64,000 nucleotides of DNA, taken from assembly GCA_010093745.1 (NCBI GenBank), contig MU005971.1, positions 62,001-126,000 of the forward strand. Reading direction: 5' to 3'. Source of the stretch: Piedraia hortae CBS 480.64 (taxonomy: Eukaryota). This document shows positions 36,753 through 52,616 of the stretch, in pieces; positions within the stretch are counted from its first letter, which is position 1; every line of letters starts with the position of its first letter. The translations under genes and the position numbers were made by a program. The notes below the pieces were generated by a model. The model had not been told where the DNA came from, did no database searches, and saw nothing but the letters and a program-made list of their open reading frames with translations.

Positions 36753-37689
36753 TGTTGCTGTGAAGGGGGAGGGGTAGCTTTCAAGATCTTCAAGGCCAAA
36801 CGGTTGAAGAACCCCCACTTCTGGCCGAACGCGAAATGCCAGTCCATGACATCACCAGACGGCATGCACCCCCTTATCTCCCTTGCGTCCTTTGCCTCCT
36901 CTTGGTATAAAAGTGGCTAGTACGTTCATAGATCATCAAGCTGGACTTACGATCTCAACGACTCTGAACCATGTACACGTGACTTCGGGAATCAGAGACT
37001 CGGTCCAGCAACGTCACCTCGGTAAACGTCATACTGGACGGACCTGCATGCCGAGATTTAAGGTCATTGAACAGGCTAGCGTACAAGACAGAAGGCATTT
37101 GGTCTGCCACAAAGAGCGATGGGAAAAAAACTGAAACTTCAGTGATTGTGGTATAATCTAGCCTAGCAAAAATATAGCAATCACTTGCGGTTCATAATTC
37201 AGGCTTCCATTCGACGTAATTGCCAGCTTGTGGTCCATACTTTGAGTTTTCGGTTCATGTAATGGCGAGACTGTCAAATTATTTGGTAGGCAATGGTGTT
37301 TGAGGGCGCATGTATATGTGGCTATGTGGTTGAGCTGATGTCATGTGGTGAGGTGAAGTTCCGCACTTCACCTCACGCTAACCCAGTTCTAGTCGCATTC
37401 ACCGAGACTACGTTTCCGAACACGCACAGAGCATAAAACGGCACCGTGTCTCGTCCCAGGGAAAACTTCCTCCTATAGAAGAAAAAACCCTGAGAAGCAT
37501 CGACCTCTATCTAAGCTCGCAGTTGCGACCTGGCTGTATACTATATGAGAGGGTTTACCGTCTCACAGAGACCTGGCCACGTAACCTTTCTCTTTCCATG
37601 CGAACGCCTATTCACCGCTGCATGTTTTGCTACGGCGCCGACTCGTGGAAGAATCGTCGCCGCATGCCAAACCTTCCAGAAGGTCGTGT

Positions 37690-38222
37690 CCAGGTACCAG
37701 GTCATGCCGCCATCAAAGGCAATGACAGGGCCGACGTCCTCGCCAAGATGGGAGCATCAGCCACAGTCGACCCGTCAGCCCCGGTCAGGCTGCCAACGTT
37801 AGCTCATATAAAGAGATCAGCATGAGCCTGGAGCGCTGCACCGGCGAGAGGCTGGTGGGCTGAGAATATCCCCCAGCACTACCAGGAGCTGGCCATCGGC
37901 TTTCCTTCCAAGCCGCCAAAGGAACTGCGCCTCCGACGAAATGCCCCTGGACAACTCGTCGCGTGCAAAACGAAGCACGGTGACTTTGCCGAGTACCATC
38001 AAAGGTTCAATCACCGCGATGCAGAGCTCCACTGCTCTTGCGGGAGCTTCAAGACCCCAGTACACTTTTATTTCCGCCCGAAAGGCTCAACTGCCAGCAA
38101 CGTGCTGTGCAAGGGCTCGCCAAGCACCGCATTGAACCAGGTCCTAGGCACAGCGGCTGGGACTAAACTGTTTGCCAAGTATACGGCACAGTCCAGGTTC
38201 TACGAGGACATCTGCCCCAGGC
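37690..38222 (+). mobile_element. 3' remnant of Tad1-like LINE ORF2 (RNase H C-terminus and Cys/His finger)
   Basis: One frame with one internal TGA: VPGHAAIKGNDRADVLAK (RNase H) ... HGDFAEYHQRFNH.DAELHCSCG..KTPVHF ... FYEDICPR. Confidence 0.85.
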
Positions 38223-38430
38223 AGTCGACCAGAAACCAAGATGGCCCAAGTGGCCGGGGAATTGACGCGGAAGAGGTGCGGTCGGAGGGCACCGAAGGAG
38301 AGGACGGGGAGTGAAAGAGTCGGCCCCGCATCGTCTTATGCCCCATTAGGGTCCGGGCATATGCTCATTAGGGGACCGCGACCGCGACGGAGTATCAAAA
38401 CACGCTATCTTCGCGGTCACTATCGTCACG

Positions 38431-38760
38431 ATGAGCACCGACATGGGCGTCCCGATCACGGACGACATCAACGACGTCTCCGCCGAGGCCAGGATCACGA
38501 ACTGGATTATGGACACAAACAGACACATGCGCACTAACCTGTCCAAGGCGACGCTCGTGAAGAGGCTGATGTTCAGGGACGACATGCTAGTCGTAGTCTG
38601 CCCCGGGTGCATGATCGGGAAGATAGCCACAGACATGGACACGACCATGTTCAAGTTCATGGACGCGGCTGCGAGCGTGGAGACGGTTATGAGCAACGCC
38701 GTTGTTGTCAGTGCGTTCTGCGGTCCAAGGACGGACACCTGCGCGCCTGTGAACCTGCAG
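38431..38760 (+). pseudogene. Island ORFan fragment (5' half of ORF 38431..39069)
   Basis: Protein-like, GC3-rich frame that is also open upstream of the ATG. Beyond ~38760 the + frame becomes His/Arg/Asp-rich, as expected of an antisense shadow. Confidence 0.45.
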
Positions 38761-39060
38761 ACGCCAAATGTCCATCGACATGATGAGGACCTCACCTGCG
38801 TGCACAACCATCGACGCAATTGTGTCCAAGATAGTCATGAGCATGCTAGCGTTCATGTCCACGATGCTATGCACATAGATTATGTTCGACATCATTTCGC
38901 TATGCGGCCCCATGCACAGATCCCCGATTATGGTGATCGGCGAGAAGGTGGTCCCGATAACCTCCGACGACTGGTGGACGAACATGAGGTTGACGCACTT
39001 GTCCGTGCAATCGGCGAGGAAGAGAGTCGCCGAACTCGTCCATGGCGAGGCTTGAGATCG
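38760..39060 (-). pseudogene. Island ORFan fragment on opposite strand
   Basis: Globular-looking stretch TLFLADCTDKCVNLMFVHQSSEVIG...VVHAGEVLIMSMDIW within ORF 38587..39351. Confidence 0.4.
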
Positions 39061-39127
39061 TGTCCGTGATCGGCATCGTGAGCGCACGGCGCGCTGTGCG
39101 GTTGCCACAGTCGTTGCGCGGCCCGTC

Positions 39128-40465
39128 ATGGTGTGGGCGAGGAGTCGGGGCATCTCCATGATCCCGCCCAGGTTGAGGGACACGGTGGCAACCTCAAGCG
39201 TAACCGGACGCATGCACGAGATGAAGGCCATGTGCATGGATGCGACTATGAAGTTGGCCAAGCAGCTGCAGACGTTCGTGCACGGGGACAGGTTCGTGTC
39301 CACGATCAGGGGCCTGATGATGTCTGCATACGCGGGGCCAATCAAAGTCATGCGCGTAGGCCTCTACCCATACGAGCAGGACATCCTGCACTCAATCGCC
39401 TCAGCCCTCGCGTACTCCCCCACGATGTGCGGCGGCTCCACGCCCTCCGTCCAGGTCCTCGCTCAGGCCATGGCTGCGATGGTTCACAGGGTCAAGATCA
39501 AAGCCACGAACAAGAAGGGCATGTCGGATGCGTGCATCGTCCCGACCGAGGCCGAGTTGGTAGCGACCTTCAAGATGTTGCTCAGGTGCTCGTACATGTG
39601 CACGGCTGTGGGCGTGGCCTTCGTCAACTGCGTCCCTGTGCCTGTGCCCACGATGGCGAGGAAGATCGCGTGGGCGTCCCTGTTTTCGGAGTGGCTCGGA
39701 GACATGATCGTGATCTACAACAAGTTCGGGTATAAGATGACGATTGTGAGCATGGGTGCACTCGCGTCCGACAGTGTAAAGAGGACGTTCAGCTCGTACA
39801 GGGGCACGAATGAGATGGGGAACCACACCGCCGCTGTGAATCCGGCCGCAATCTCCTACGTGAATGTGCCCAAGCACGTGGCTAGGTTCCCGATCACGCT
39901 GACGATCACGAATATCGAGGAGGAGATCTTCACGATGATGGACTACCACCCGACGTTGGACATTAGCACAAGCTACAAGTGGAATGTGTACCCCAGGGAG
40001 ACTCTGTCCATGTCCATAAATGAGAGCAGGGTCGGGCCTCTAGCCAGGTCCTTGGCTAACCACCGAGTCGAGGGTCTAGTGCCTTTCTTCATCAACATGG
40101 CGAAGGACCTCTTCAACACCGGGAAGATGCTGAACAACACGGCGTCATCCTCGTCCATCGCGCCGCCCGGGGCCCTGCAGCCGATGCCGGAGGAGGCTAT
40201 CCACGACGATCCGAGCGCAACCGGGGGCACGAGTCTGTTCATGAATAAGAACGAGAGTACAACCAGGACCCAGGACGCGCACGGGCCTCCGGCGAACTCC
40301 ATGAACCAGATCTACGTTGGGCGCAACATCATGCTTGCGCAGTTGACCGACGCCACAGGCAAGACCAAGACCCAGCAGACGATTATGGTCGAGAATATGA
40401 TCGGGAAGTTGGACGAGATTTTTCGAGCTGTACAGGACCAGGGACAAGAGGGAGGAGAGGCTTGA
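39128..40465 (+). CDS. Uracil-DNA glycosylase-fold protein with C-terminal extension (likely frameshifted near 40430)
   Basis: VMRVGLYPY (cf. VVILGQDPY), ASALAY, TPSVQVL (PPSL), VGVAFVN (QGVLLLN), IVSMG (FMLWG), NPAA (HPSP), in family-1 UDG order. Confidence 0.7.
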   Translation: MVWARSRGISMIPPRLRDTVATSSVTGRMHEMKAMCMDATMKLAKQLQTFVHGDRFVSTIRGLMMSAYAGPIKVMRVGLYPYEQDILHSIASALAYSPTMCGGSTPSVQVLAQAMAAMVHRVKIKATNKKGMSDACIVPTEAELVATFKMLLRCSYMCTAVGVAFVNCVPVPVPTMARKIAWASLFSEWLGDMIVIYNKFGYKMTIVSMGALASDSVKRTFSSYRGTNEMGNHTAAVNPAAISYVNVPKHVARFPITLTITNIEEEIFTMMDYHPTLDISTSYKWNVYPRETLSMSINESRVGPLARSLANHRVEGLVPFFINMAKDLFNTGKMLNNTASSSSIAPPGALQPMPEEAIHDDPSATGGTSLFMNKNESTTRTQDAHGPPANSMNQIYVGRNIMLAQLTDATGKTKTQQTIMVENMIGKLDEIFRAVQDQGQEGGEA

Positions 40466-40502
40466 GGAGAAGGTCACGTCCATCATCGCCGCTGCTTCGT
40501 AC

Positions 40503-40670
40503 AGGTTGTGGACGCCTGTAGGTTGTCAGAGGTATAGCCGAGGCTACAGGGGGCACGTGGTCAACCCGCGAAGTCGCGGCGAGGAAGCGGAGAACACGGC
40601 TCGCGTCACCCGAACAGCGAGACGTGTTAGATATAGTCTCGCAGTCGGCGACGGCCCCGTTATCGGCGAA
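40503..40670 (+). pseudogene. Frameshifted fragment of a second allele of the island RNA polymerase gene
   Basis: RLWTPVGCQRYSRGYR/GTWSTREVAARKRRTRLASPEQRDVLDIVSQSATAPLS aligns with RLWTPVGCQKYSRDYKGTWLTHEVMTTKLRVRIASPEEQDILNKILSTAAPLS at ~45664-45828. Confidence 0.85.
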
Positions 40671-41310
40671 GGTCGAGGTGGTCATCGGTACCATTACTGA
40701 GACCACCAGTGAATTTACTCGCAAGAAGAATCCTGGCAACAGGTACTGGCGCGCGCCGGTATCGTTCAGGTCGAACAATTTCGAGAGCCTTGTCCTTAAG
40801 CAAGCTAACGTCGCTGTCCCCTACAATAGGGGTAACAATTATGGTACGGACTACATATATGTCAATATGCCCAAGTTTGTAGGCATGCATCTCAAGAAAG
40901 CGGCAGAGCGGCAAGGTCTCGTCGTCCAGATCGATGACGACCGGTTGCACAGCACCGACACCGATTGGTGGAAAACTCTGAACAATTGCACCGACAATTG
41001 CGGTATCATCACCCAGAGCGGTGATTTTGAGCCTCGTGACTTGAACAACATATTCCGTGTCACCAAGAAGGGTGTTGTAGTCAACGTAGACTACTGCGTG
41101 TCGCTTCGTCTTACCAAGACGAATGGCGAAGATCTCAGCAGCACTGACGTGTTTCGTGTCGTTCTGGACTGCAGTCGCGTCGCTCTCAAGAAAGTGAAGG
41201 TGGACGTAGAGGGACCGCCCATGGCTGCCAAGATCCCCACCACCCTCGCAGTCAAGGATGACGTCGCCACAGACGATCTGCTCGTCCAGCTTGAAGCCAT
41301 GGGTATCTAA
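40624..41310 (+). CDS. Island ORFan, beta-rich with acidic tail (possibly ssDNA-binding); native start replaced by the polymerase fragment
   Basis: Open 228-codon frame with strong C/G-ending codon bias and no ATG near its 5' end; function is a guess. Confidence 0.6.
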   Translation: MLDIVSQSATAPLSAKVEVVIGTITETTSEFTRKKNPGNRYWRAPVSFRSNNFESLVLKQANVAVPYNRGNNYGTDYIYVNMPKFVGMHLKKAAERQGLVVQIDDDRLHSTDTDWWKTLNNCTDNCGIITQSGDFEPRDLNNIFRVTKKGVVVNVDYCVSLRLTKTNGEDLSSTDVFRVVLDCSRVALKKVKVDVEGPPMAAKIPTTLAVKDDVATDDLLVQLEAMGI

Positions 41311-42096
41311 GCTACTATAGAGATATCCACTTTTTTAAAAATATTTTCGGCAGCAGATGCTGCGAAATCAACTAGAGTACCATTGTCTGAAACGGAACTT
41401 GCTGGCGAAACAACTCTCATGGATATAGGCATATCGATCGGAATAGTCGCCAAATACCTCGCAGATGGGTACCAAATAGTATCAACTAACAACGATAAGG
41501 TAGCTACCAACGATCGGATTATATGTGTTAACGTCGCAACATGGGAGTCATGTCCCGCGAAAACCGAACTCTGTAATACACTGGCAAAGAGGTTAGATAA
41601 TAAGAAAGGCAATCGTTTTCAGCAACTGAGCGCAGTGGCAATATGTGCCCTTTGCACTCACGGTTATCTTATCAATCATATTTCTGCACCTGGGCTTACT
41701 GCTAAGGATATGGATACTGTGTGGGGGTTTATGGAAACAACGGCTGTGAGTTCCAGCGAAGCGTTATCCAAGTGGCTAAGCGAAACGATAGCAGGTAGAT
41801 CGCTCGACGGATACCGTGCTAGTGCAGTCATTGAGAACAATAGTGGACACTGTTGTAGTGATAATTACCGGCCACGTAACACATTACGTAAACCAGTAGG
41901 GGCAACTGAGTTGGTTGATATTAATGCTGCAGCATCGGAGTATGGGACAGGCGACAGCATTACCAGTCTCGCTATGGCTGACACAGACATGCTATGTTCG
42001 TTGCGTTTTAACAACGGTGAACCGCCGCCCAGAGTAACTGGTCCAACATGGTGTACGCTACAGCACGGCCAACGACTTAACGAACAGCGGCCATGA
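41311..42096 (+). CDS. Island ORFan, apparently 5'-truncated
   Basis: Frame is open directly from the TAA at 41308-41310; AT-richer codons; 3' end overlaps the convergent TBP-like ORF. Confidence 0.5.
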   Translation, partial: ATIEISTFLKIFSAADAAKSTRVPLSETELAGETTLMDIGISIGIVAKYLADGYQIVSTNNDKVATNDRIICVNVATWESCPAKTELCNTLAKRLDNKKGNRFQQLSAVAICALCTHGYLINHISAPGLTAKDMDTVWGFMETTAVSSSEALSKWLSETIAGRSLDGYRASAVIENNSGHCCSDNYRPRNTLRKPVGATELVDINAAASEYGTGDSITSLAMADTDMLCSLRFNNGEPPPRVTGPTWCTLQHGQRLNEQRP

Positions 42097-42894
42097 TCGT
42101 GATGATGCTATAGACAGTATTGCTTGTCTAAAACCCGCTCCAATTACATGCAAGGCATCGGGTTTACCGGTGCATTTGAAGGACCCGTCTGCATATAATA
42201 ACATACATGTGTTCTTGTTCGCTTCTTCGCCGTAGCACGTCGCTGTTGGTCGAGCTGTTATCTTGTAAGCAGATGTCTTGACATCATTTACGAATGCAAT
42301 ATTATCAGGTGCATACGACCTAAGCATCGCCGCAGACTCCCGTGTAATCGTAGCCACATGTGACCCGTCATCGTCCGTACACAAGAATATAAAGCGCGAC
42401 TTCGATATGTTGACAAACGACCACTGACAGGGTACCTCCATATTATCTATCACATACGGGGTTAATCTACCCGATACTTGCACCTTACAATTATGCTTCG
42501 TGACTGTGCAAGCTATAGCTCCCAGTTGTTCACACATAAGATGTGTAGTCATCTCTGCGTCCCGATGCTTAAGTACAGACAAACTTGCCGTTGAACTGCT
42601 CAACTCTGGTTGTACGAAACAACACCTGTATACCGCAGAGGTACCTACGACCCACAGCCCGACAGTATGACATGCCCTGACATTAGCGTTGACAATCGAC
42701 ATACCGTTTGTAAGCCCAGTGACCAGTGGTGTTAGCAGGTCAATCGAGGCTTGTGGTAACTGTACTCCGTAAGTACAGGTGTATACGTCTTCAGAGTTAT
42801 CGTTTGTAGTATGTTTGTATCTCAACGACAATGATAGAAGCTGGCTTTGTGTCCTGTTAGATCTGTTCTTCGATGATCTGAAAAACGATGCCAT
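42058..42894 (-). CDS. Putative divergent TATA-binding-protein-fold protein
   Basis: TCMLLYADGSFKCTG followed by a helix resembles TBP TALIFSSGKMVCTG; weaker first repeat (SIVNANV ... CKVQVSG). Confidence 0.5.
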   Translation of the reverse strand: MASFFRSSKNRSNRTQSQLLSLSLRYKHTTNDNSEDVYTCTYGVQLPQASIDLLTPLVTGLTNGMSIVNANVRACHTVGLWVVGTSAVYRCCFVQPELSSSTASLSVLKHRDAEMTTHLMCEQLGAIACTVTKHNCKVQVSGRLTPYVIDNMEVPCQWSFVNISKSRFIFLCTDDDGSHVATITRESAAMLRSYAPDNIAFVNDVKTSAYKITARPTATCYGEEANKNTCMLLYADGSFKCTGKPDALHVIGAGFRQAILSIASSRSWPLFVKSLAVL

Positions 42895-42895
42895 A

Positions 42896-43540
42896 TCACC
42901 ACCAGCGTAGGCTGCGCAACGATGTTGCTATGCGACACTGTCGCGATGACCGACAATACCATCGACAGAGCGGACGTGGAACAGATAAATGATGTGCTGC
43001 GTTTGTCATACTGGATCTCATTCTACTGACGCTATGCTGGGCGGGGTTACCCATCGCACAGATATGAACCTTTTTACCAGCAATGATCACAGACACTCTT
43101 ACTATATCAACGAGGAATTGTTCCGTTGCCACGCGCTCCCTGTCAGATAGCGGGTCAATAAACGGTGTATACGCACATATATTCATTACCAACACACCCT
43201 GACGGAGGTACTTCCAGCTTTCTTGGAACCAGTCGCGAGCGGTGTTATAATCCATGTCGGTGTGATTATGAATATCTCTGGCAATATAATGGACGGATGG
43301 TGTCACGTTAGTAAGCAAAGGATCATAAGACATGGCTGATGCGACGTACGGGAGGATACGATTACCATAGGGCCGCTCGCCCAATATGATATGCCTGATT
43401 GGCATCGATCGCGGTATTCCCAAAATATACCGGCATAGCGGCCCAGTTATATGATGAGTAGTGTTACGTGTAACGCCTATCTCATCGAGGTAAGCATAGC
43501 ATCTTTCGTAACATAGTTTAACTACTCGTTCGTCACACAT
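42896..43540 (-). CDS. Uracil-DNA glycosylase-like protein (C-terminus possibly replaced)
   Basis: HIILGERPY, ASAMSY, TPSVHYI, QGVLVMN, ICAMGNPAQ match the family-1 UDG motif order; HPSP motif not seen. Confidence 0.8.
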   Translation of the reverse strand: MCDERVVKLCYERCYAYLDEIGVTRNTTHHITGPLCRYILGIPRSMPIRHIILGERPYGNRILPYVASAMSYDPLLTNVTPSVHYIARDIHNHTDMDYNTARDWFQESWKYLRQGVLVMNICAYTPFIDPLSDRERVATEQFLVDIVRVSVIIAGKKVHICAMGNPAQHSVSRMRSSMTNAAHHLSVPRPLCRWYCRSSRQCRIATSLRSLRWW

Positions 43541-43581
43541 GGTGTTTTTAGCAGAGAGCTGCCTGTTTTAACATAGAGCTG

Positions 43582-44490
43582 CTAATCATTGAATAACCTC
43601 ACTACTAACTCTCCACATTCGACGTTAATGGTATCGTTTACATCATGACAGTTGACGCACACACGCCGATGTACAACATGCATAACAGAACAAAAGTAAC
43701 ATTTCTTATACTTGCTAATGGCATTCATGATTTCAGACACTAGCGTGTTAATAGACATGCTTACAGTATCAATATCAATCGATGTTCCTATTCTGGGAGG
43801 ACCGAAGTTAACTGCGACCAAGTTGTCCGTACGTGGGCGCTGGTACATCAATGGCGCTAATCGCGTTCCTTCAGAACCGATCAATGTGGGTACACCGTAT
43901 ATGACGCCGGTACCATTTACCCACATATTGGTACGTTTGTATTGTAATGAGACCGCCAATTCCATACACCTAATGGACCCTATCCACGTTAGCGTGCAAT
44001 CTTCGCTTATCAGTCCCTTTACAACGTCGATTAGCGTACCTCTGTTTACCGTGAATGGACCATTTATACTGCTCACACGTACTAAGTACTCCTTACCATC
44101 ATCGCCAATGGGTACTACTACACATGTAATTCCGGTCATTGAGTCTCTGATATTATCGATTGATTCTACTATATCAACAGCATAGTTTGAATATTCGATA
44201 AAAATTATGACATTGGTTATACCGCGGTACGACGACATCAATAACATCATGGTAGCAAGTACCGATAAATGTTCTTTTTTACAAGAATTAAACACCTTGG
44301 GCGACAAGGAGTACATGTCAGCAGTGTTCACATATGGTACCGTGATACCATCCACGAGAGCATCGATGGCAGCGAATTGATCATTGCGTATGTTGACATG
44401 AGTGCAATTGTCAACTGTGTCTGCAATCCGCTTCAATGATGTAGTGCAGTTAAATGCACATGCGCTGTTCCCGCTGCACCTACCGATCAT
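43582..44490 (-). CDS. Island ORFan with Cys clusters
   Basis: 302-aa intronless ORF; C-terminal CYFC..CVNC possible Zn site; start overlaps the upstream stop (ATGA). Confidence 0.7.
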   Translation of the reverse strand: MIGRCSGNSACAFNCTTSLKRIADTVDNCTHVNIRNDQFAAIDALVDGITVPYVNTADMYSLSPKVFNSCKKEHLSVLATMMLLMSSYRGITNVIIFIEYSNYAVDIVESIDNIRDSMTGITCVVVPIGDDGKEYLVRVSSINGPFTVNRGTLIDVVKGLISEDCTLTWIGSIRCMELAVSLQYKRTNMWVNGTGVIYGVPTLIGSEGTRLAPLMYQRPRTDNLVAVNFGPPRIGTSIDIDTVSMSINTLVSEIMNAISKYKKCYFCSVMHVVHRRVCVNCHDVNDTINVECGELVVRLFND

Positions 44491-45314
44491 TTGATGGAAT
44501 GAACGATATATTTCATGTGGTACCTAGACGTATGTTTCCCGCGCGCAGATTGTAAAGGTTCCAGCACTACCGATACAGTGAAGGTAGCAGTTGCCACTGC
44601 ATCACAGTTTAATCTTTCAGCGAACACCGCGGCTGTAGCGTCACGCCTCCAACCGCGCTCCATAATGTCGCAACATACCAGGTGTCGCGAGAGAGAGATT
44701 CTGACACTGCTATATGACCATGTGTCCTGATATGTAGGCATTACTCTGACTCCAATGCTATGGAGCGAGTCCATTAAAGCGTCTGTCACAATTATTGGTA
44801 CAAACAGTACCGCTGTATATGCCTCTGTATCAACAGTGGTGAAGAACGTGTGATCATACCTGTTTGTCTTAGGTCTAACAAGAACACAGTTAGGTACATC
44901 GAATACGGGAGACTTAACAGCAGGTTGGCATGTACATACAAGCATAACACCTCGAACGTACGGGTCAATGCATTCCGTTAGATAATCATAGTACTTACCT
45001 AGCACATCTAGGCTAAGCGGGATCAGCTCACTGGTTACATCTTCAGTGACGCGCAATCTCAATGGACGTTTGGCCTTCGCGATATCATAACCGTTGTCAG
45101 CCTGCAGTTGCATAAACTTCATATCAAACCATTCGTCTCCATTATTCGGTGGTGATTCGGTCCCTATTAGTGTCCAACCGCGGGTGTACAACCCACTGTT
45201 TATCATATCGTTAACATCATCATCGTATTCGGAAATCGTAGCTTGATCAGCGAAACCTACTGGAGTTGCAGCTGGCCTCGAGGTGCCCGGCGCACCGATG
45301 AGCATACGTGCCAT
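44487..45314 (-). CDS. Island ORFan
   Basis: 275-aa ATG-initiated intronless ORF, divergent from the polymerase gene. Confidence 0.7.
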   Translation of the reverse strand: MARMLIGAPGTSRPAATPVGFADQATISEYDDDVNDMINSGLYTRGWTLIGTESPPNNGDEWFDMKFMQLQADNGYDIAKAKRPLRLRVTEDVTSELIPLSLDVLGKYYDYLTECIDPYVRGVMLVCTCQPAVKSPVFDVPNCVLVRPKTNRYDHTFFTTVDTEAYTAVLFVPIIVTDALMDSLHSIGVRVMPTYQDTWSYSSVRISLSRHLVCCDIMERGWRRDATAAVFAERLNCDAVATATFTVSVVLEPLQSARGKHTSRYHMKYIVHSIK

Positions 45315-45355
45315 GTGGATACAGCAACGCCGTTGCCTACCCTACGTGAATCAGT

Positions 45356-48300
45356 ATGTCGCTATTTAATCTCCGTCAACATGAAGCCTACGCCAATGGC
45401 GTGACATTGAGCAATCATATGACACTACGCAACGCTTGCATAGATTACCGCGACGCGGGAGGTACATCTTGGGTTGACAATGCTGCCCCTGAAATGAGCG
45501 CTGCCGCCTCAGATGATCAAGTCCCCTGTATGAATAAATTCACGAATATAGTTGGACATGCAAGCGACAGCGAGATCATTTGCTTTGGTATACAGGAGTG
45601 TACTAGTGCAATTGGCGTGCTAACTGAAGTTATAGGATCAATGCAGCGCGCCGTCGAGCTGGGCAGATTGTGGACGCCTGTAGGTTGCCAGAAGTACAGT
45701 CGCGACTATAAAGGAACCTGGTTAACACACGAGGTAATGACGACAAAGTTGAGGGTACGGATCGCATCGCCGGAAGAGCAGGACATATTGAACAAGATCT
45801 TGTCAACGGCAGCACCATTGTCAGTAAGCACCGTACACGCTGCAATGGAGGCAAATCATCATACTAACATTTGCGAGTATGGTAATATATTTATGTTTCC
45901 ACACGGTGCAGCACCATCCGCCGGGTTAATAGGATCTTTACATGACAATGAATGCGTAGATATGTGTCCCAACGACAATAAGGATGTTCCAAACAGTGCT
46001 GCCAGATCATTCCTAAGGGAATACAGGGGATTTATATGTGCAGGACACACATCGCATTCGACAGAAGCAGGAAGAGTGCGCCGAGTCACATGCGACGTGC
46101 GCGTCAGATTATTGTCTCGTCGTACCATCGACGACCTACGTGGTATCGAACTCGTGTGGCGCAACATCTATCGTGGCACCGATACGGATTGGACTGTGTT
46201 TTGTATGGGATATCATTCCCGCATAACGCGCGCTGAGATGATATGCTTAGAACGGTTCCGAAACACCATATCAGCCAGACGTCCTTGTAGCTTCAGCGTG
46301 CATACGTACCCTGATCTGAAGTTAGTGATAGTTTCAGTAAGCTCAGGGACGCTAATGAAAAAATGTAGCGTAGGTGGATGGGCGGACAACATTGAAGTTC
46401 ACGTGTCTAGACCTATTGACGATTCACCCCGGCCAGAAATCCATAGCACTGGATATGACCAGCTGAGGGCAAACTTCTCGGCGTTTTTTAATCTTGTACC
46501 ATTCATATCAAGTGACCGAGCACCTAGACCGCTCATCTCGTCTGTACAGACTCCTCAGGCAGTCTGTATTCCATGGTGCCCCGGTACAGCGTCGGTGTCA
46601 CCGTGTTACTCGTTTAACCCGATAGTCACCACACCACTGTACACCAATGTTCTCGCCGATATAAATGATGGCAACGCGAATGTGAGTAGTTACCTTCCCG
46701 GTGAAAATGTAGTAGTGCTGTATCTAAATATGCCGGGCAATTATGAGGATGCCATGATAGTCTCACGCAGATACATTGACAACGGTGGGTTTAGCACTGT
46801 CTCCATATGTTCCTACCTTGTGCAACAAAGCGAATATGTGCCGCCTGTAGGTAGCCGTGTGTGTTCAGTGCTATGTACATGGTGGAAATCACCATGTGAA
46901 CCTGGATGCCTCCATACAACGAGGTATATCGAATCGACTAAGACGTACTGCGTTGGGCACGCACCAACCGGCGTGATCGTCAGCGTCACTAAACAACCCA
47001 CGGGGGACATATCGGTTAGGGTGAAAAGTCACCAGCAATTGCAGCAAGGCGACAAGCTTTCCACTGGTCATGGACAGAAAGGCGTTGCTGTCCTGTGGAA
47101 TCATGAGGACATGCCTGTGGCTCATAGTGCGAAGCATGGTACAATAATACCAGATGTTGTGGTTGCGATGTCGTCACTTGTGACTCGACAAACCAATGGA
47201 CAACTATACGAAGCTGCGTGTGCGTTAACACATATTTCAATGGGATCAAGGCTACCGGTGGCGGTTGACGCAGATGCTGTGTTTGATGTTAACGACGAAT
47301 TCACTGTCACTGATGCTACTACAGGTGAGCCGTACATGACGGCTGTAGTCGGCGATGATGGTGAGATATACATGCAAGAGACGCTGGCCACGTTGGGCAT
47401 TGTGCGTATGTTCAACCAGACACAGATGACCCGCGAGCGGCATCATGTGTCCCACATCTCACACGGCGCTGCGCCATCCGCTGGATTGATAGGCTCCCTG
47501 CACGACAACGAGTGCATAGACATGTGTCCGGGTGACAACAAGGACGTCCCAGACCTCGCGGCTAGGTCCTTTCTGAAGGGTTACAGGGGATTCATATGCG
47601 CGGGTCACACATCGCATTCCACAGAGGCCGGAAGGGTTCGTAGAGTAACGTGCGACGTACGTGTCAGGTTGCTGTCGCAACACACGATCGACGACCTGCT
47701 GGACGTCACAGTTGCGCTGCGCAATATTTCCCGTGGCACTGATACAGACTGGACAGTGTTCTGCATGGGGTACCACGCGCGCATAACACGCGCTGAGATA
47801 ACGTGCCTGGAACGGCTCCGTGACAGTGCGTCAATCAGACGTCCGTGCACCTTCAGTGTGCACATATATCCCGACTCCAAGCTGGTCGTTGTATCGGTGA
47901 GCTCAGGGACGTTGTTAAAGAAGTGCAGCGACGGCAGGTGGGCAGACGACGTTGAAGTCCACGTGTCCGAGCCGGTTGGTGGTTCGTCCCGGCCTAGAGT
48001 GTCGGGCTCGGGGCGCGATCAGCTGAGGGCGAATTTTTCAGCTTTCTTCAGCCTCGTGCCTTTCGTATCGAGTGGCAGGGCCCCTAGGCCACTCATATCC
48101 TCAGTGCAGACACCTCAAGCTGTTTGCATCCCGTGGTGCCCCGGTACCGCGTCAGTGTCGCCGTGTTACTCGTTCGACCCGGTGGTCACGACGCAGCTGT
48201 ACAGCGAAGTGCTCGCTGACATACGTAACGATAGGGCGAATGCGAGCAGCTACCTTCCAGATGAAAACGTAGTGACGTTGTACCTAAATCTGCCAGGCAA

Positions 48301-48445
48301 CTACGACGACGCTATGATAGTTTCGCGCAGGTACGTTGACAATGGTGGGTTTAGCACAGTTTCCGTGTGCTCGTACCTGGTGCAGCAAAATGAGTACGTA
48401 CCACGAGGAGCTGACGGAGGTCAACCCATCCATAGACGAAGATGA
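45356..48445 (+). CDS. Highly divergent DNA-directed RNA polymerase second-largest subunit (Rpb2/beta-like); chimeric, native C-terminus missing
   Basis: GFICAGHTSHSTEAGRVRRV ([20 protein letters not shown]), LVPFISSDRAPRPLISSVQTPQAV, GENVVV..GNYEDAMIVS..IDNGGF, QGDKLSTGHGQKGV..EDMP, IPDVVV..TRQTNGQLYE. Confidence 0.9.
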   Translation: MSLFNLRQHEAYANGVTLSNHMTLRNACIDYRDAGGTSWVDNAAPEMSAAASDDQVPCMNKFTNIVGHASDSEIICFGIQECTSAIGVLTEVIGSMQRAVELGRLWTPVGCQKYSRDYKGTWLTHEVMTTKLRVRIASPEEQDILNKILSTAAPLSVSTVHAAMEANHHTNICEYGNIFMFPHGAAPSAGLIGSLHDNECVDMCPNDNKDVPNSAARSFLREYRGFICAGHTSHSTEAGRVRRVTCDVRVRLLSRRTIDDLRGIELVWRNIYRGTDTDWTVFCMGYHSRITRAEMICLERFRNTISARRPCSFSVHTYPDLKLVIVSVSSGTLMKKCSVGGWADNIEVHVSRPIDDSPRPEIHSTGYDQLRANFSAFFNLVPFISSDRAPRPLISSVQTPQAVCIPWCPGTASVSPCYSFNPIVTTPLYTNVLADINDGNANVSSYLPGENVVVLYLNMPGNYEDAMIVSRRYIDNGGFSTVSICSYLVQQSEYVPPVGSRVCSVLCTWWKSPCEPGCLHTTRYIESTKTYCVGHAPTGVIVSVTKQPTGDISVRVKSHQQLQQGDKLSTGHGQKGVAVLWNHEDMPVAHSAKHGTIIPDVVVAMSSLVTRQTNGQLYEAACALTHISMGSRLPVAVDADAVFDVNDEFTVTDATTGEPYMTAVVGDDGEIYMQETLATLGIVRMFNQTQMTRERHHVSHISHGAAPSAGLIGSLHDNECIDMCPGDNKDVPDLAARSFLKGYRGFICAGHTSHSTEAGRVRRVTCDVRVRLLSQHTIDDLLDVTVALRNISRGTDTDWTVFCMGYHARITRAEITCLERLRDSASIRRPCTFSVHIYPDSKLVVVSVSSGTLLKKCSDGRWADDVEVHVSEPVGGSSRPRVSGSGRDQLRANFSAFFSLVPFVSSGRAPRPLISSVQTPQAVCIPWCPGTASVSPCYSFDPVVTTQLYSEVLADIRNDRANASSYLPDENVVTLYLNLPGNYDDAMIVSRRYVDNGGFSTVSVCSYLVQQNEYVPRGADGGQPIHRRR
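47460..48403 (+). repeat. Diverged, indel-free copy of 45900-46843 (offset 1560 nt)
   Basis: Same offset at both ends; in the first 60 nt there are 14 substitutions but only one amino-acid change. Confidence 0.95.
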
Positions 48446-48758
48446 AAAGCAAACAAACAAACAATGCTTTGCTACGGATGATCTTCAGGCTGATTCACCG
48501 CCGCCGGAATTTGCTACCGCCCGTTCCTCGAAGCTTGGCCTCCATTGAGAGAGAAGGTACTGAGGTTGGATGGAGAGCAGTTCCAAGGCGATATGGAGGA
48601 TTGCACACCCGCTGATTTACCAGATTGCAAGAAGCGCACGGTTCAATGGGATGCTCTCCCTCTTCACCAGGAAACACACTTTTCTTCTTCCCCACCAGAA
48701 TTCATGTGCTAAAACCTCATTTCATACCCATCATTACTGATACAATTACTTCTACCGC

Positions 48759-51700
48759 CTACTGTCCCTTTCCCCTCTTTGCAATGTAATACGTGAGCAG
48801 TCCCAATCTCCCTTCGTCCGTCCCCTTAAACGCATCCCAAAACTCATTCTTCTCCGCAAAGAGCTCAAACAATTCACTCGCAAGCTCCACATCTGCCTTT
48901 CGAACTTCAGCATCAGCGTGACAAAGATTCGCAGCTGCAGTGCTTGTTAGGCGCGTGCGTACGCTCGTCTCGAGCTCTACAGAGGAAGAGCGGGCTTTCG
49001 TCGTCTCGACTAGACGGCGGAGGGTGTAAAGCGCCATTGCAACTGCGCCGTCGCCCTGATCCTGGCCGAGAAAATCCAGGGTTGCGTCGATGCAGACCTC
49101 TGGCTGCGACGTCCTTACAATTTCGTCTGCCGTCTTCTCGACGTCGGTGGCAAAGTAGCCGTTGGATATGGTGGTGCTGTTCTGGCACGCAAAAACTGTG
49201 ACAAGCGCCTTGGCCTGCCATGCTGTGGCGTGCTTGCGTTGCCGCGTGAGCAGCGTGCGCATGAGGATCATGGCTTGAGTCTTGAGTGAGGTGGCCTTGG
49301 GCGGTGTTGGGATGATTGTGTCAAATGTCTGGAGGTAGTCTAGCAGGACGGTCATGAGCTCGTCGTACCTTTTTCCGCCGTCCCAAATGTCCTGTTTGCT
49401 CTTGGCGAGATCCTGCACACGTCGGAAGCCGTGCACGTCTAGAGACTTGTTGCGGATGCGCTCGATGCCGGAGCTGAGGAGCTTCTTGCTACGGTGCAGG
49501 TCTGCGCGTTCTTGTGGAGATGGCTCAACGCCGTTGAGAGGCTGCGGACTGGTACCTGCGCTCTCGCTGGAGTCGCCGTTGTTAATGGGACTGGCTACCC
49601 TCGCGTTCTCGTTTACTTTGATTTCTCCGAGCACCTTACGGTCACCGTTCATCGGTGCTGTACCTGCACCTGTGACAAAAGGATCTTCGTAGATGGGGAT
49701 TTCTTCGGCCTGTGTTGTAACAGCGGATTGAGGCTCGCTGGCTACTTCAGGCATACCGTGCCGTTGCATCGGCGAGTTGCGGTCGAGCTTGTCCCTCGCC
49801 TGGTCGAACATGGCCTTCAACGGAGTCCGAGTAGCAAGAGGAGATTGTGTACGTGGCTGGTGGCTGGTCATGGTGGGCATTACCATGGTGAAGCCATCAT
49901 CGTCTGATGGTGCATGGAGGCTGCTGTCCGCGGACATGGCCTGTTGCAGACCGGGACGCTTGATGCCGAGCCCGTTCTTGCTGCTTGGGATAACCATTGT
50001 AAGATCATCCTCGTTAATCATCGATGCGTCGTCGCTGCGTGGCGCATTGCTGCCCTTGCTAGTCGGCCTGGAGGTCTGAACGTGATCGGTGACTGACCGG
50101 CTAAGGCCTGGCATAGGGCTGCGTCTGCGAGGACTGCCTCGAGGGCTCGCCGTGTGTCGGGGACTGGCCCCCTGTCGGACACCGGTTGATCCCTTGGTGG
50201 CACTCAAACCGGAGGCGGAGGTCTTGGATGGCCTCGGTGAGTCCCCTCCCGGGCTGCCGTTTGCCGGAGTGGCGGGCCTCAGCATGCGTCTGGAGGCATA
50301 AGGGTCAGCAGTCTGCGGACGTGCAATCTCCGGTCTTCTAGGCCGTCTTGCCGGGCCAGACATGAGTGCACTACGCTTGCTGGTGGACGAAGCACGGTTG
50401 TCAGGAGCACCGGCCGAGACATTTGACGTGACTCTATCAGGATGGAGGTGTGAAGGGGCACGAGGAGCGTGGTTGACAGTGGAATAGGACCGAGGCTTTG
50501 CAGGCGACAGCTGGGCCATGGCCGAGTTTGGCCTATCAGGCACTCGTCCATGCGCCTTTGCCTTCCTCTGCTCAGCAATCATGTCCCGCATCGCCTGTCT
50601 GCTGGTAGCAGACCGTAAGCCGGTGGCTCCCGTGGTCGGTAGAGACTTGTGGAGGCCAGCATTGGGATTTCCGGGGTGTTTCTGTAGTGCCGTTTTGGCT
50701 GGGCTGTCGAGGGAGTTTATGAGCTTCTCGGCACGTTCTGGCCAGCTCTTTGCGAACACCCAGTAGGTTGCCCTCATGCCTTCTTTAACAGCCGGCTTTG
50801 CGTCTTCCAGGCCCTTTTTGATCGTCTTTTCGGCCAGTTCTAAACCGCCAGAGATCTCAAAGTGGTGCTGATAGCCAGCCTGGCGGTTCAAGATGGTCTT
50901 GAGCCACTCGGGCACGCATTGGCGGATTTGGACGTTTTTGTCTTGGGAAGCATACCAGATATGCTGCATCATGTTACGGTTGTAGGAGCAATGCTGAAAA
51001 AGGGCGTCACACGTCGTTCGGCCGTTCTGGGCAGCAATCGGTTTCGTGTTGGAGCTCATCTTGATGAAGTTTTGTAGCAAAATTTCGACTGTGGGGTCCA
51101 GCGCCGGGCCCAGCGTCCGTGCCAGTTCCTGCACAAGCTGCGTGCCATTGGTAGACATGGTTGTCCGCAACGAGTTGGCTACCTTTAATATGCCCTCCAG
51201 GAGGCTCTTGATGCCGGCCATGAAGGCTGGATGGTACTGGCTGGGTGCGTTTCCCTTCAATAGCCGCCGCAACATAACGACTGACTTATCCCGAGGAATC
51301 CAGTTCTCTTCATCCTCTTTGCCCTCGAAGAATGGCAGCATATCGCGGAAGATGTCGGTCAGGTCTCGCTCCGAGTAGACGGTGACAGGATCCATCTGGA
51401 CAGGTTCAGGAGTCGGTGGATGGGCCGCTTCGCTGTTTAGGCTGTGAGAAAGTTGATTGCCAGGGGGGAGCAGATTGCCGCCCTCGGCTGCCTCTTGCTC
51501 GCCATCGCCCCTCGTCCTCGGCCTGGCGGGAGGTGCGGCTGTTTCGCTTCCAATCTGAGCGAGTATCTGCGACTGGATAGAGTGGCGAACCGAATGCGCC
51601 TTCAACTGGCGCTTGAGATCCAGCTTTGCGCGATCTGGCGCGTCAGAGAAAAGTTCGATGAGGGCTGTCTTAGCCGTCTCCCGCACGTTGCCCTCGTGGT

Positions 51701-52226: not shown

Positions 52227-52616
52227 GTTCGTTGCTGCCGTGGAGTGCTGGATCCGGAGCTTCAGAGTTGTCCGTTGTCACTGGTCCGTGCACATATACA
52301 AACACCGCGTCGTGTTTACGCGTCTTCCCCGCATTGTTTATCGGCACTCCACATGTATGCCGTCATCAGTTCCGTCATCGCGCTTCAACCCCGTCAAAGC
52401 TCTTTCCGCCTTCGACATTCACCCGCACGGACCAATTCTTGGCAAGCCAGTTGAACGATCGCAGTAGATCTACTTCAATAGTTACGAGACGCGACGCTGA
52501 TATAGGGAGGCACTAGTGGAATGGAAAATATTGACAAAGATCTTGACTTGATGCCACATGCGTTGGCTGTCGGCTTGACCGACAGAAGTTCAACACTTGG
52601 CAGGCTAAATGACTCT

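Follow-up and report, generated by a model that had tools for sequence, protein, structure and literature searches.

A chromosomal island of Piedraia hortae is very probably a mosaic of integrated pieces of small DNA elements with their own transcription genes

We analysed a stretch of 64 kb of Piedraia hortae CBS 480.64 (assembly GCA_010093745.1, contig MU005971.1, positions 62,001-126,000 of the forward strand; hereafter the window), in which an island of about 10 kb is flanked by genes for an SDR and for CLASP/STU1. Very probably, this island is an integrated, non-autonomous mosaic derived from at least two long-diverged members of a family of small DNA elements of filamentous ascomycetes. 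The island holds nine intronless ORFs, read in the standard code with no introns needed, and Pfam identifies the flanking genes as an adh_short SDR on the left (E 3e-31) and, on the right, an STU1-type CLASP_N protein (E 7e-112). An earlier note, made from the sequence alone, had recognised about nine intronless ORFs between these genes, among them an Rpb2/beta-like polymerase subunit, two UDG-fold proteins and a probable TBP; Pfam, PDB, Foldseek and hhalign comparisons agree with these assignments, with middling scores for the TBP. Of the bounds it proposed (38300..48403), the right one held, as homology ends at 48403/48404. On the left, demonstrable homology to relatives begins only at 39128, and the stretch 38300..39127 gave no Pfam or PHROGs match and, in tblastn with the locus ORFs and the fetched proteins as queries, nothing above chance. 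The repeat further left, at which contigs break, has a depth of 40-92 in the DNA run X1 against 11.3 for the flank; its Pfam RNase_H score (E 0.014) is under the cut-off, it has no match to the NADAR-RNase H protein of the element, and it is probably a retrotransposon fragment. The earlier note had seen no capsid, packaging ATPase or DNA polymerase, and none was found in the window by Pfam, PHROGs or comparison with relatives.

Table 1. Features of the island and its left neighbour, in positions of the window
Feature	Position	Strand	Basis or remark
Multi-copy repeat, left neighbour outside the element	37540..38230	+	Weak RNase H similarity
GC-rich stretch with 212-aa ORF (38431-39069)	38300..39127		GC3 0.65
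445-aa ORF, very divergent UDG-fold protein of the 557-aa family	39128..40465	+	hhalign
Rpb2 pseudogene piece of copy A, residues ~103-156, one frameshift	40502..40650	+	72% nt identity to 45664-45779
291-aa element protein, C-terminal 212 residues, fused in frame to Rpb2 piece	40651..41310	+	Listed ORF 40867-41310; 68% identity to L001 2688-3560, residues 80-291
TTTTAAAA, candidate gene-end signal	41333..41340		Directly after stop of preceding gene; orthologous to L001 3603
225-aa ORF, conserved element protein	41419..42096	+	50% identity to L001 3831-4478, 27% to L003
278-aa ORF, probable TBP-like transcription factor	42058..42894	-	Structure model
UDG-fold N-terminal domain, 227 residues, 557-aa family	42872..43540	-	Listed ORF 42896-43540 (214 aa); 58% identity to L001 6411-8081, residues 1-227
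Palindrome GCAACGATGTTGC	42916..42928		21 nt upstream of TBP-like ORF; orthologous to L001 5367
302-aa ORF, conserved element protein, C-terminal Cys motif	43582..44490	-	38% identity to L001 8111-9016
275-aa ORF, conserved element protein	44487..45314	-	47% identity to L001 9025-9861
Palindrome GCAACGCCGTTGC	45324..45336		Between divergent 275-aa and Rpb2-like genes; orthologous to L001 9943
Rpb2/beta-like copy B, residues 1-~705 of ~817	45356..47470	+	Pfam, identity to relatives
Rpb2-like copy A, residues ~183-496, joined in frame to copy B	47471..48403	+	Direct repeat
Nine ORFs as called	38431-39069, 39128-40465, 40867-41310, 41419-42096	+	ORF call
Nine ORFs as called, continued	42058-42894, 42896-43540, 43582-44490, 44487-45314	-	ORF call
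Nine ORFs as called, continued	45356-48445	+	ORF call

One of the ten ORFs scanned, the Rpb2-like one, matched PF00562 (E 2.3e-21; score 76.8 bits, cut-off 23.4), and all 39 PDB sequence matches of this subunit are second-largest RNA polymerase subunits. It is very divergent: its distances to the archaeal, eukaryotic, bacterial and viral enzymes appear to be much the same, and only about a third of its length aligns with theirs. Copy B, which is 64% identical to P0001, P0002 and L001 over 700 residues, has the GDKLSTGHGQKG motif but neither domain 7 nor the zinc ribbon of the C-terminus; its in-frame join to copy A makes a 1029-aa ORF. The two copies are direct repeats with a spacing of 1560 nt and 73-75% identity. 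Each has the other as its closest relative (aa identity 77.7%, nt identity 71.5%, dN 0.14; next best 66-67% identical), their synonymous sites are saturated (pS 0.775), and GC3 is 0.66 in copy A against 0.46 in copy B. Upstream, the frameshifted piece of copy A matches Rpb2 residues 103-120 and 119-156 when translated in two frames.

The other ORFs were compared with their families and with known structures. The N-terminal domain of the 557-aa family, represented by a profile of 27 members from which the window rows were excluded, aligned with residues 29-246 of the 445-aa ORF (hhalign probability 96.9, E 1.7e-10), and tblastn gave identities of 24.5% with L003 and 26.5% with L004. The family model of the 214-aa ORF had 52 Foldseek PDB matches at E<=1e-3, and all of the matches listed are family-1 UDGs (probability 1.00); the C-terminal ~330 residues of this gene and the adjoining 338-aa gene are deleted here. 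Neither UDG-fold protein has the catalytic Asp, since GLYPY (445-aa ORF) and GERPY (214-aa ORF) stand in place of GQDPYH. Poxvirus UDG (D4/E4) is likewise a family-1 UDG fold encoded beside a viral-type PolB, and E4 is among the weak profile matches of the UDG-fold protein; poxvirus D4 retains the Asp of GQDPYH and works in DNA polymerase processivity, whereas the element protein has this residue replaced and carries a ~330-aa C-terminal extension. The element protein could plausibly act in structure and not in catalysis. The 278-aa ORF has 13 homologs, the best 77% identical, and TBPs are the only long PDB matches of its model (pLDDT 84.5), with middling scores (VIA Z 7.0 over 142 aligned residues; Foldseek E ~2e-3), making it a probable TBP-like factor. 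For the 302-aa ORF, Atlas gave no lead.

Gene for gene, the island is collinear with metagenome contigs of 24-32 kb: seven consecutive genes (40651-47470) have counterparts in L001 that are 38-68% identical and stand in the same order and on the same strands, with one 2.2-kb deletion between. The relatives encode a PolB (PF00136 E 3e-35; best PDB matches archaeal PolB at 4e-26, Pol alpha, and mpox F8 at 7e-14), an Rpb1-like subunit (PF00623 E 7e-13) whose DxDGD motif reads HADFDGDE or HGDYDGDE, a TFIIS-ribbon protein with weakly scoring hints of a methyltransferase and of mRNA_cap_C (capping-enzyme motifs), a NADAR and RNase H protein, a DUF5906-like P-loop NTPase with weak scores, and a nucleotidyltransferase lead that may be a poly(A) polymerase. 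This synteny with contigs bearing PolB, Rpb1-like, capping and RNase H genes bears out the earlier note's reading of the island as what is left of a virus-like DNA element that brought its own genes for transcription. Linked polB, Rpb1, capsid and ATPase genes had been proposed as a check, and the first two were found on the syntenic contigs, while a capsid gene and an A32 ATPase were not seen there. Relatives of the ORFans number in the tens, not in the thousands. Homolog-bearing scaffolds occur in assemblies of Hypoxylon, two Aspergillus species and Ophidiomyces and in a Circinaria MAG, and all these named hosts are Pezizomycotina.

Two short sequences recur around the element genes. The palindrome GCAAC-N3-5-GTTGC stands upstream of them, with nine exact copies in L001 (0.06 expected) and 2-5 in four other loci; in a relaxed form it precedes 32 of 61 genes at a distance of <=70 nt. 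The window has two exact copies (0.26 expected by chance), both of them in the island, between genes and at orthologous positions. In addition, TTTTAAAA has 7 copies in L001 and 10 in L009 (1.72 expected), all of them, by comparison with the ORF tables, at or within ~50 nt of gene ends, and only two in the 64 kb of the window. To judge from their positions, the palindrome and TTTTAAAA may be the element's own expression signals.

Genes are truncated at every fragment edge, and the island is not one insertion: its pieces come from at least two long-diverged copies. Fragment B (~6.8 kb) has a low GC3 and copy A a host-like one, and fragment B may sit inside or against remnants of copy A. About 2,190 aligned codons of fragment B read without stop or frameshift, which fits a recent insertion and also selection on some genes. 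The PolB, Rpb1-like, NTPase and capping genes are absent from the island and its Rpb2-like gene has lost the C-terminus; therefore, the island can neither replicate nor transcribe itself. In run X2 alone, three joints were seen whose ends are GT..AG and whose branch sites are CTAAC-like or TTAAC; they shorten the Rpb2-like ORF to 155 aa and leave 35 aa of the 275-aa ORF; other X2 contigs cover 38227-39666 and 40149-42219 without joints. The joints, the uneven depth and an automated guess of the run type suggest that X2, with its transcript-like contigs, is RNA, and the host seems to transcribe parts of the island and to splice cryptic introns, destroying two ORFs.

That all or some of the island's genes have been domesticated and now serve the host seems unlikely. 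The 445-aa UDG-fold gene would be the best candidate, with a GC3 (0.83) that exceeds those of SDR (0.59) and STU1 (0.66) and ~23% identity to its family against 78% between the Rpb2 copies; all nine ORFs are open, as is the long reading of fragment B, and the joint-free X2 contigs point the same way. However, the truncated genes, the frameshift in copy A, the Rpb2-like ORF without its C-terminus and the splice forms that break two ORFs speak against a host function, and high GC by itself lengthens chance ORFs, and the opposite strand of 38.6-40.7 kb also has ORFs of 103-254 aa.

The earlier note had named a large DNA virus or a virus-like element as the source. With a giant virus of Nucleocytoviricota, the contigs of 20-42 kb would be pieces of much larger genomes; we regard such an origin as improbable, since the source elements look small (contigs <=42 kb). 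All 66 contigs with full-length Rpb2-like homologs are <=41.9 kb, 48 of them of 17-42 kb and many clustering at 20-37 kb, although fragmented short-read assemblies could partly account for these sizes. The same ~20 genes recur across different loci without further neighbours. The gene set does overlap the core of these viruses (PolB, two large RNA polymerase subunits, TFIIS ribbon, capping-type motifs, TBP-like factor, UDG), the NTPase resembles the D5 family (DUF5906 E 1.2e-5, just under the cut-off), and weak BFVD rows of the TBP-like model include giant-virus TFIID proteins and a poxvirus or marseillevirus early transcription factor. Yet the polymerase subunits (beta-like ~800 aa, beta-prime-like ~610-655 aa, in separate genes) are far shorter than the viral homologs of 1,164-1,243 aa in the PDB list, the family profile fits archaeal Rpo2 (6e-27) better than vaccinia (2e-16) or ASFV (5e-14), an IMG/VR scan gave no relative among 76 pattern matches, and no MCP or A32 ATPase was seen. 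Endogenous Nucleocytoviricota of fungi ('fundsalphaviruses', Mycodnaviridae) are similar in being integrated, decayed pieces with PolB, two large RNA polymerase subunits, a D5-type NTPase and a methyltransferase, sometimes with adjoining retrotransposon sequence (PMC7017919). These relics of early-diverging fungi are giant-virus-derived, with genes that BLAST recognises as NCLDV-like, whereas here the polymerase subunits are strongly reduced and divergent. According to PMC13533422, their hosts are 14 species, all non-Dikarya, and Dikarya are described as uninfected.

An origin from a yeast-type cytoplasmic killer/helper plasmid (zymocin-like VLE) is very improbable. VLEs of the pGKL1/2 type are also small fungal DNA replicons with a multisubunit-type RNA polymerase, a capping enzyme and no evident capsid gene, and each of their ORFs is preceded, at 20-40 nt, by a short conserved sequence (PMC6211774); remnants lie in nuclear genomes (PMC6211774 and PMC13348850), the latter reporting VLE-derived toxin clusters in nuclei of Pezizomycotina and, in a chytrid, a VLE-like contig of 26 kb. 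VLEs are described from budding yeasts and, lately, Zoopagomycota and Mucoromycota, and distant Rpb2-like relatives of the present family occur in chytrids. In contrast, VLE polymerases are protein-primed pPolB (PMC13348850), and here PF00136 with archaeal- and Pol-alpha-like best matches was found, L004 having no PF03175 match. The beta-like and beta-prime-like subunits are separate genes, the upstream motif is the above palindrome and not ATNTGA, the GC content of 37-47% contrasts with VLEs of >75% A/T (PMC4431711), and no chitinase or toxin gene was seen among the relatives' genes. Moreover, the contigs measure 20-42 kb against 4-14 kb for VLEs, and the family adds UDG-fold, TBP-like, RNase H and NADAR genes and has Pezizomycotina hosts. 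The shortened subunits recall, by description, baculovirus LEF-8/LEF-9, which keep little beyond active-site motifs, and the TFIIS-like zinc ribbon of LEF-5 has a counterpart too, the element ribbon weakly matching Baculo_LEF5_C (E 8e-4 to 6e-3); baculoviruses differ in being insect viruses with genomes up to 160 kb and nuclear replication (PMC2919709).

The island is chromosomally integrated. Contig 8 of the DNA run (15,673 nt) spans 39637-52500 with no difference, from the island into STU1, and supplies on this side the link to the flanks that the earlier note had asked to see; the depth of this contig is 11.8 against 11.3 for the flank, and a second study of Piedraia hortae contains 78% of the sampled words. 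A free episome or contaminant misjoined by the assembler is hardly credible given this contig and depth, the presence in a second study, and a content that is truncated, deleted, duplicated and frameshifted, unlike that of a working episome, even though relatives are separate small contigs, a run of N lies ~10 kb away in the scaffold, and no contig among those listed bridges the left junction, because of the repeat at 37.5-38.3 kb.

The preferred reading is thus of integrated pieces of at least two small elements. These may be viruses or plasmid-like, as the earlier note also allowed; no capsid or packaging gene was found among the relatives' genes examined, none of which belongs to an element complete end to end. 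The literature searched gave no description of such an element and no record of such DNA viruses or plasmids for this fungal group; with relatives in ascomycete assemblies, this agrees with the suggestion of an undescribed lineage infecting Pezizomycotina, and the kind of element is seemingly undescribed. Complete relatives would replicate with PolB (a family-B DNA polymerase), the P-loop NTPase, RNase H and a UDG-fold protein that lacks the catalytic Asp, and would transcribe with a compact two-barrel RNA polymerase, a TBP-like factor, a TFIIS-ribbon/capping/methyltransferase protein and a nucleotidyltransferase. With a polymerase of their own, such elements would not depend on host Pol II to express their genes and would probably do so outside the nucleus, in what may be a cytoplasmic life in or with filamentous ascomycetes.

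The island between the host SDR gene and STU1 is integrated, dead, and composite, a relic from a lineage of virus-like elements in filamentous ascomycetes; its source appears to have been small (≤42 kb) and not giant. Listing of the ORFs in the standard code gave nine intronless ones at 38.4-48.4 kb (212, 445, 147, 225, 278, 214, 302, 275, and 1029 aa), flanked on the left by a host short-chain dehydrogenase (adh_short E 3e-31) and on the right by a host CLASP/STU1-type protein (CLASP_N E 7e-112), which confirms the layout proposed in the earlier note, an island of about nine intronless ORFs between SDR and STU1. The GC content is 56-60% at 38-41 kb, drops to 44-49% over 41-47 kb, and recovers to 54.5% for 47-48 kb and 52.3% for 48-49 kb. 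Two sequencing runs containing the stretch were used. A single 15,673-nt contig of X1, the probable source DNA run, spans 39637-52500 with 0 differences, and the depth in X1 is 11.8 for the island versus 11.3 for the flank; the island is physically continuous with the host chromosome at host copy number, as is an integrated relic. The left junction is bridged by none of the listed X1 contigs because a repeat stands there: contigs break at 37.5-38.3 kb, with several loose ends at 37565-37637 and 38295-38329. This repeat, which abuts the island, is multi-copy (depth 40-92 versus 11 in X1), resembles RNase H weakly, and is likely to be a piece of a retrotransposon. A run of ~600 N, where GC and skews read 0.000, lies ~10 kb left of the island and is either an assembly gap or a withheld stretch.

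A metagenome scan yielded 16 loci. One of them, L001 (22 kb out of a 27-kb contig), is collinear with the island over seven genes, listed in the table. Relative to L001, the window lacks ~2.2 kb, corresponding to a 338-aa gene and the C-terminal ~330 residues of the 557-aa gene. When 38200-39200 was compared by tblastn with every locus ORF and fetched protein, only chance-level matches were obtained, and a PHROGs search of the ORFs gave nothing beyond weak RNAP-beta matches. The island thus combines synteny with a non-host replicon and the marks of decay of an endogenous relic: a deletion, several truncated genes, one frameshift, and a chimera joined in frame. The seven-gene collinearity, the decay, and the integration bear out the earlier proposal of a virus-like element relic.

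Features of the island, its surroundings, and related loci, with amino-acid identity to L001 for the collinear genes
Feature	Sequence	Coordinates	Strand	Identity to L001
Run of N	window	28200-28800		
Multi-copy repeat	window	37540-38300		
X2 contig without joints	window	38227-39666		
445-aa ORF (UDG-fold)	window	39128..40465	+	
X2 contig without joints	window	40149-42219		
Further piece of copy A	window	40502-40650		
Stretch collinear with L001	window	40651-47470		
291-aa protein, last 212 residues	window			68%
225-aa ORF	window			50%
GCAGC-N4-GCTGC class	window	41340-41420		
278-aa ORF (TBP-like, probable), opposite strand	window	42058..42894	-	58%
557-aa protein, first 227 residues	window			58%
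GCAGC-N4-GCTGC class	window	43541-43581		
302-aa ORF	window			38%
275-aa ORF	window			47%
Rpb2-like gene (copy B)	window	45356..47470		64%
X2 contig without joints	window	46509-48084		
Gene preceded by GCAGC-N4-GCTGC class	L001	6411-8081		
Tandem paralog, 148 aa	L001	14562-15008		
Tandem paralog, 146 aa	L001	15181-15621		
Nucleotidyltransferase-like protein	L001	20285-21628		
257-aa ORF, Zn_ribbon_3CxxC	L003	13980-14750		

Among the 10 ORFs scanned, the 1029-aa ORF alone has a significant Pfam match, to RNA_pol_Rpb2_6 (PF00562, E 2.3e-21; 76.8 bits for a cut-off of 23.4). The domain 6 active-site loop GxKxxxxHGQKG is present as GDKLSTGHGQKG at residue 565. All PDB sequence matches (39/39) are second-largest RNAP subunits, the best being S. 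pombe Rpb2 (E 8e-8), with an alignment confined to residues 540-629. When a profile of 25 family members was used, archaeal Rpo2 came best (6e-27), followed by bacterial beta (1e-21), Pol III (3e-21), Pol II (4e-19), vaccinia rpo132 (2e-16), and ASFV (5e-14), all these alignments covering the last third only. The family consensus includes domain 7 and the C-terminal zinc ribbon (clamp), as GGGVAxGEME and CxxC...CxC; L001 gives a weak PF04560 match (E 0.005), and this domain is annotated in 5 of the 66 Rpb2-like homologs. The window copy is devoid of domain 7 and zinc ribbon, a segment of copy A standing in their place after residue ~705. The Rpb2/beta-like subunit that had been claimed is upheld by PF00562 and the PDB matches; as judged from these motifs and profiles, the product is a genuine, strongly reduced, and divergent beta/Rpb2-like subunit, and no copy of a fungal Rpb2.

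The long ORF contains two diverged copies of this gene, copy B and, downstream, copy A. Residues 694-1016 repeat residues 174-496, with 1560 nt from start to start and 73-75% nucleotide identity. The copies are 77.7% identical in amino acids and 71.5% in DNA, with pS 0.775 (synonymous sites saturated) and dN 0.14. Because synonymous saturation goes with a low dN, the two copies must have diverged mostly under purifying selection as working genes, and not in place. They are each other's closest relatives, the next best among the 66 homologs reaching 66-67%. GC3 is 0.66 in copy A and 0.46 in copy B; a high GC3 is common to copy A, the 291-family piece (0.67), and the 445-aa ORF (0.83), host STU1 and SDR being at 0.66 and 0.59. 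A further piece of copy A (residues ~103-156, with one frameshift) is fused in frame to residue ~79 of the 291-family protein, and the copy A polymerase gene is interrupted by ~6.8 kb of other element DNA. In our reading, related lineages contributed to the island at least twice, and one acquisition was inserted into the other or recombined with it. In the low-GC part, ~2,190 codons align to L001 without a stop or frameshift. Since about 4% of random substitutions in sense codons create stops, this indicates either a recent insertion (at most ~1% neutral divergence) or constraint.

Two UDG-fold proteins and a probable TBP had also been predicted. A profile of the 557-aa family, which is the UDG-fold family, matched only UDGs in the PDB (12/12), with a best E of 0.11. 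Its AlphaFold model was built from 29 sequences, with an N-terminal domain mostly at pLDDT 80-95, and gave 52 Foldseek PDB matches at E≤1e-3; among the matches listed, all were family-1 UDGs (prob 1.00, TM by target 0.41-0.59). The 445-aa ORF aligned with the 557-aa family by hhalign, window rows left out, over residues 29-246 only (prob 96.9, E 1.7e-10). Both UDG-fold proteins are thereby borne out. The Asp of the water-activating GQDPYH loop is catalytic in UDGs. The 557-aa family has GERPY instead (E55 and R56 nearly invariant, P57 and Y58 invariant), with Asp changed to Arg, and the 445-aa ORF has GLYPY. Neither protein has the appearance of a canonical, active glycosylase. Poxvirus D4 provides an analogy for a possible role as a replisome accessory.

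The 278-aa ORF has 13 homologs, and its model reached pLDDT 84.5 and pTM 0.79. Foldseek against the PDB gave no match at E≤1e-3; TBPs filled many of the top rows at E ~2e-3 (TM 0.27-0.38), with archaeal Pyrococcus TBPs at prob 0.93-0.94. In an exhaustive VIA search, Sulfolobus TBP was found at Z 7.0, a range (Z <8) that may reflect a common arrangement (rmsd 3.7, 142/189 residues aligned), yeast TBP at Z 6.5, and human TBP at Z 6.2. TBPs were the only matches spanning both halves, the other rows covering one 60-residue alpha/beta unit. The best BFVD match was an unnamed protein (E 4e-5), and weak rows included giant-virus TFIID, poxvirus and marseillevirus early transcription factor, and herpesvirus UL87. 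The model thus supports a TBP-like product as probable, which is the grade that the earlier note had given it: the two-half matches stand, at middling scores (Z 7.0, E ~2e-3).

Relatives of the Rpb2-like protein are numerous. A word-indexed search found 66 proteins of ~760-835 aa (apart from three shorter fragments) with 28-64% identity, and an exhaustive search gave 322 clusters at E≤1e-3, of which 141 reach E≤1e-10. An IMG/VR scan with the Rpb2-like profile gave 76 pattern matches, 0 of them confirmed. The longest contig among the 66 is 41,881 nt, and 48 of the 66 lie on contigs of 17-42 kb. The earlier claim of a large DNA virus relic holds for the virus-like lineage; the source elements look small and not "large", their contigs being ≤42 kb. 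Where a source is named, it is Hypoxylon sp., Aspergillus hancockii, or A. insuetus; the neighbouring genes also have relatives in Ophidiomyces ophidiicola and a Circinaria calcarea MAG (~23-kb contigs), and in Piedraia hortae itself, on 307- and 407-kb scaffolds, the latter copies being therefore integrated. Distant Rpb2-like members occur in chytrids and in the alga Closterium. In five of the 11 distant relatives scanned (P0113, P0124, P0128, P0129, and P0136), gene models of 961-1678 aa join a PF00136 polymerase to the Rpb2-like part; they are either true fusions or neighbouring genes on one strand that eukaryotic gene callers have run together.

The genes of L001, L003, L004, and L009 are densely packed and intron-free. 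The relatives encode a 719-aa family-B DNA polymerase (PF00136 E 3e-35) whose best PDB matches are archaeal PolB (4e-26), then Pol alpha and mpox F8 (7e-14), and an Rpb1-like protein of 610-655 aa (PF00623 E 7e-13; PDB Rpb1 4e-11), with the metal-binding motif HADFDGDE or HGDYDGDE in L004 and L009. A ~712-aa protein has a TFIIS-type zinc ribbon at its N-terminus and, in the alignment, KPDG and RPDK, which we take to be guanylyltransferase motifs, and the methyltransferase motif GxGxG; its capping matches are weak (mRNA_cap_C E 0.015; PDB capping enzyme E 0.97), and it gave no match against PDB sequences. A NADAR-RNase H protein (E 1.5e-44 and 1.2e-27) and a P-loop NTPase with a near-threshold DUF5906 match are also encoded, the NTPase giving only P-loop noise against PDB sequences. 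There is a hint of an APH-like fold in a 360-381-aa family, and the Atlas model of a 447-aa protein resembles Gad2/PolyA_pol-type nucleotidyltransferases (TM only 0.42), a structural lead to such a function. Atlas look-alike clusters of the nucleotidyltransferase-like protein of L001 have 56-214 members, mostly labelled Basidiomycota and Ascomycota, and genes of the element family may be widespread in Dikarya genomes. For the 302-aa family, Atlas's own model (pLDDT 0.34) gave no usable lead. L001 also carries two tandem paralogs, 41% identical, each with its own upstream palindrome, with no match in other loci, and L003 carries a zinc-ribbon ORF (E 3e-16) absent from other loci. No capsid or packaging gene, including double jelly-roll MCP and A32-type ATPase, was found by Pfam among 44 locus ORFs, which covered parts of each contig, with two families folded and two looked up in Atlas. 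This agrees with the earlier note, which saw no capsid and set a virus beside a plasmid-like element.

The palindrome GCAAC-N3-5-GTTGC was found in the upstream regions of four loci. In L001, nine exact copies were counted versus 0.06 expected (0/100 shuffles reach 9); L009 has five, and L002, L003, and L004 have two each, while it is absent from the other 11 of the 16 loci, which are mostly short. In its relaxed form it lies ≤70 nt upstream of 32/61 genes (L001 11/19, L003 2/15, L004 6/12, L009 13/15), mostly within the 8-14% of bases outside ORFs. Copies of the motif TTTTAAAA number seven in L001 and 10 in L009 (1.72 expected; 0/200 shuffles reach 10), and according to the ORF tables every copy in these two loci is at, or within ~50 nt of, a gene 3' end. 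The 64-kb window has two exact palindromes versus 0.26 expected (2/100 shuffles reach 2), both inside the island: one 21 nt upstream of the TBP-like ORF, at the position of L001 5367, and the other between the divergent 275-aa and Rpb2-like genes, at that of L001 9943. One of its two TTTTAAAA copies comes after the 291-family stop codon, which is also where L001 has it. The element lineage thus has its own promoter-like and terminator-like motifs, and by analogy with the ATNTGA box of VLEs, we infer that the palindrome could be a promoter and TTTTAAAA a terminator. Upstream of some genes, GCAGC-N4-GCTGC or near-palindromes replace GCAAC...GTTGC, in L001 as well as in the window (see table), which hints at more than one promoter class.

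Run X2 belongs to a second study of this organism; it is RNA by the tool's guess, no RNA run being listed for the stretch. Its contig depths range from 0.24 to 2,074 along 18 kb, and one contig has three joints absent from the DNA run, skipping 65, 48, and 58 nt with GT..AG ends (one on the minus strand) and branch-like sites TTAAC, GCTAAC, and ACTAAC. Because of this uneven depth and of joints with splice-like ends and branch sites, X2 is likely RNA. In the spliced forms, 155 aa remain of the Rpb2-like ORF and 35 aa of the 275-aa ORF. Other X2 contigs have no joints (see table). Depth is very low over ~42.3-44.7 kb, from which no evidence of silence was drawn.

The available parts of the literature place large DNA viruses of fungi in zoosporic and other early-diverging fungi only (PMC7017919, PMC13533422): endogenous giant-virus fragments are described there from 14 species, none of them in Dikarya, and their NCLDV genes can be recognised by BLAST (PMC7017919); the Mycodnaviridae paper raises the question of why Dikarya are "not infected" (PMC13533422). 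As far as the accessible text of PMC13348850 goes, yeast-type VLEs have protein-primed polymerases and occur in Saccharomycotina, Zoopagomycota, and Mucoromycota; VLE-related sequences in Pezizomycotina are toxin clusters in nuclei only, and this group has no reported cytoplasmic DNA plasmids that carry an RNA polymerase of their own. In contrast to the pPolB (PF03175) of VLEs, the L004 polymerase matches PF00136 only; one distant relative has a faint PF03175 match (8e-4, no stretch passing alone) beside PF00136 (1.5e-37). Yeast VLEs have an ATNTGA box 20-40 nt upstream of every ORF, according to the portion consulted of PMC6211774, whereas the motif found in the upstream regions here is GCAAC-N3-5-GTTGC. 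Core replication and transcription genes of Nucleocytoviricota are present in the relatives. PDB rankings reveal no particular proximity to pox or ASFV enzymes. The reduced RNAPs of baculoviruses, as presented in the sections seen of PMC2919709, are a functional parallel. No description of elements like these was found in the full text searched, where subscription journals and supplements are poorly covered, and the host table in the supplement of PMC7017919 could bear on this result. The family is thus provisionally undescribed, and the earlier idea of an undescribed lineage in Pezizomycotina is apparently right, given the named hosts.

Taking all of this together, we lean slightly towards one reading as a whole. 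The island would be the chromosomal footprint of an undescribed, still circulating family of 20-42 kb dsDNA replicons of filamentous ascomycetes, with more distant kin in chytrids and a charophyte alga. These replicons would have a minimal giant-virus-style toolkit, with PolB, a much reduced two-subunit RNAP core, a TBP-like factor, a protein that fuses TFIIS, capping, and methyltransferase parts, and an inactivated UDG that serves in the replisome. The palindromic promoters and TTTTAAAA terminators would be their own and be read by them. As DNA virus-like replicons that bring along their transcription machinery, they would be the first known from Pezizomycotina, and either the smallest relatives of nucleocytoplasmic viruses or capsid-less cytoplasmic plasmids independent of the yeast killer plasmids.

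The analysis shows that such elements entered the nuclear genome of Piedraia hortae repeatedly and, with X2 taken as RNA, that the nucleus transcribes element genes, with splicing at cryptic sites. A family of small DNA elements that transcribe themselves, present in Aspergillus, Hypoxylon, Ophidiomyces, lichen fungi, and others, would fill the Pezizomycotina gap. The family would also give a very reduced multisubunit RNAP with simple promoter and terminator motifs for study, and would bear on the relationship between giant viruses and killer plasmids.
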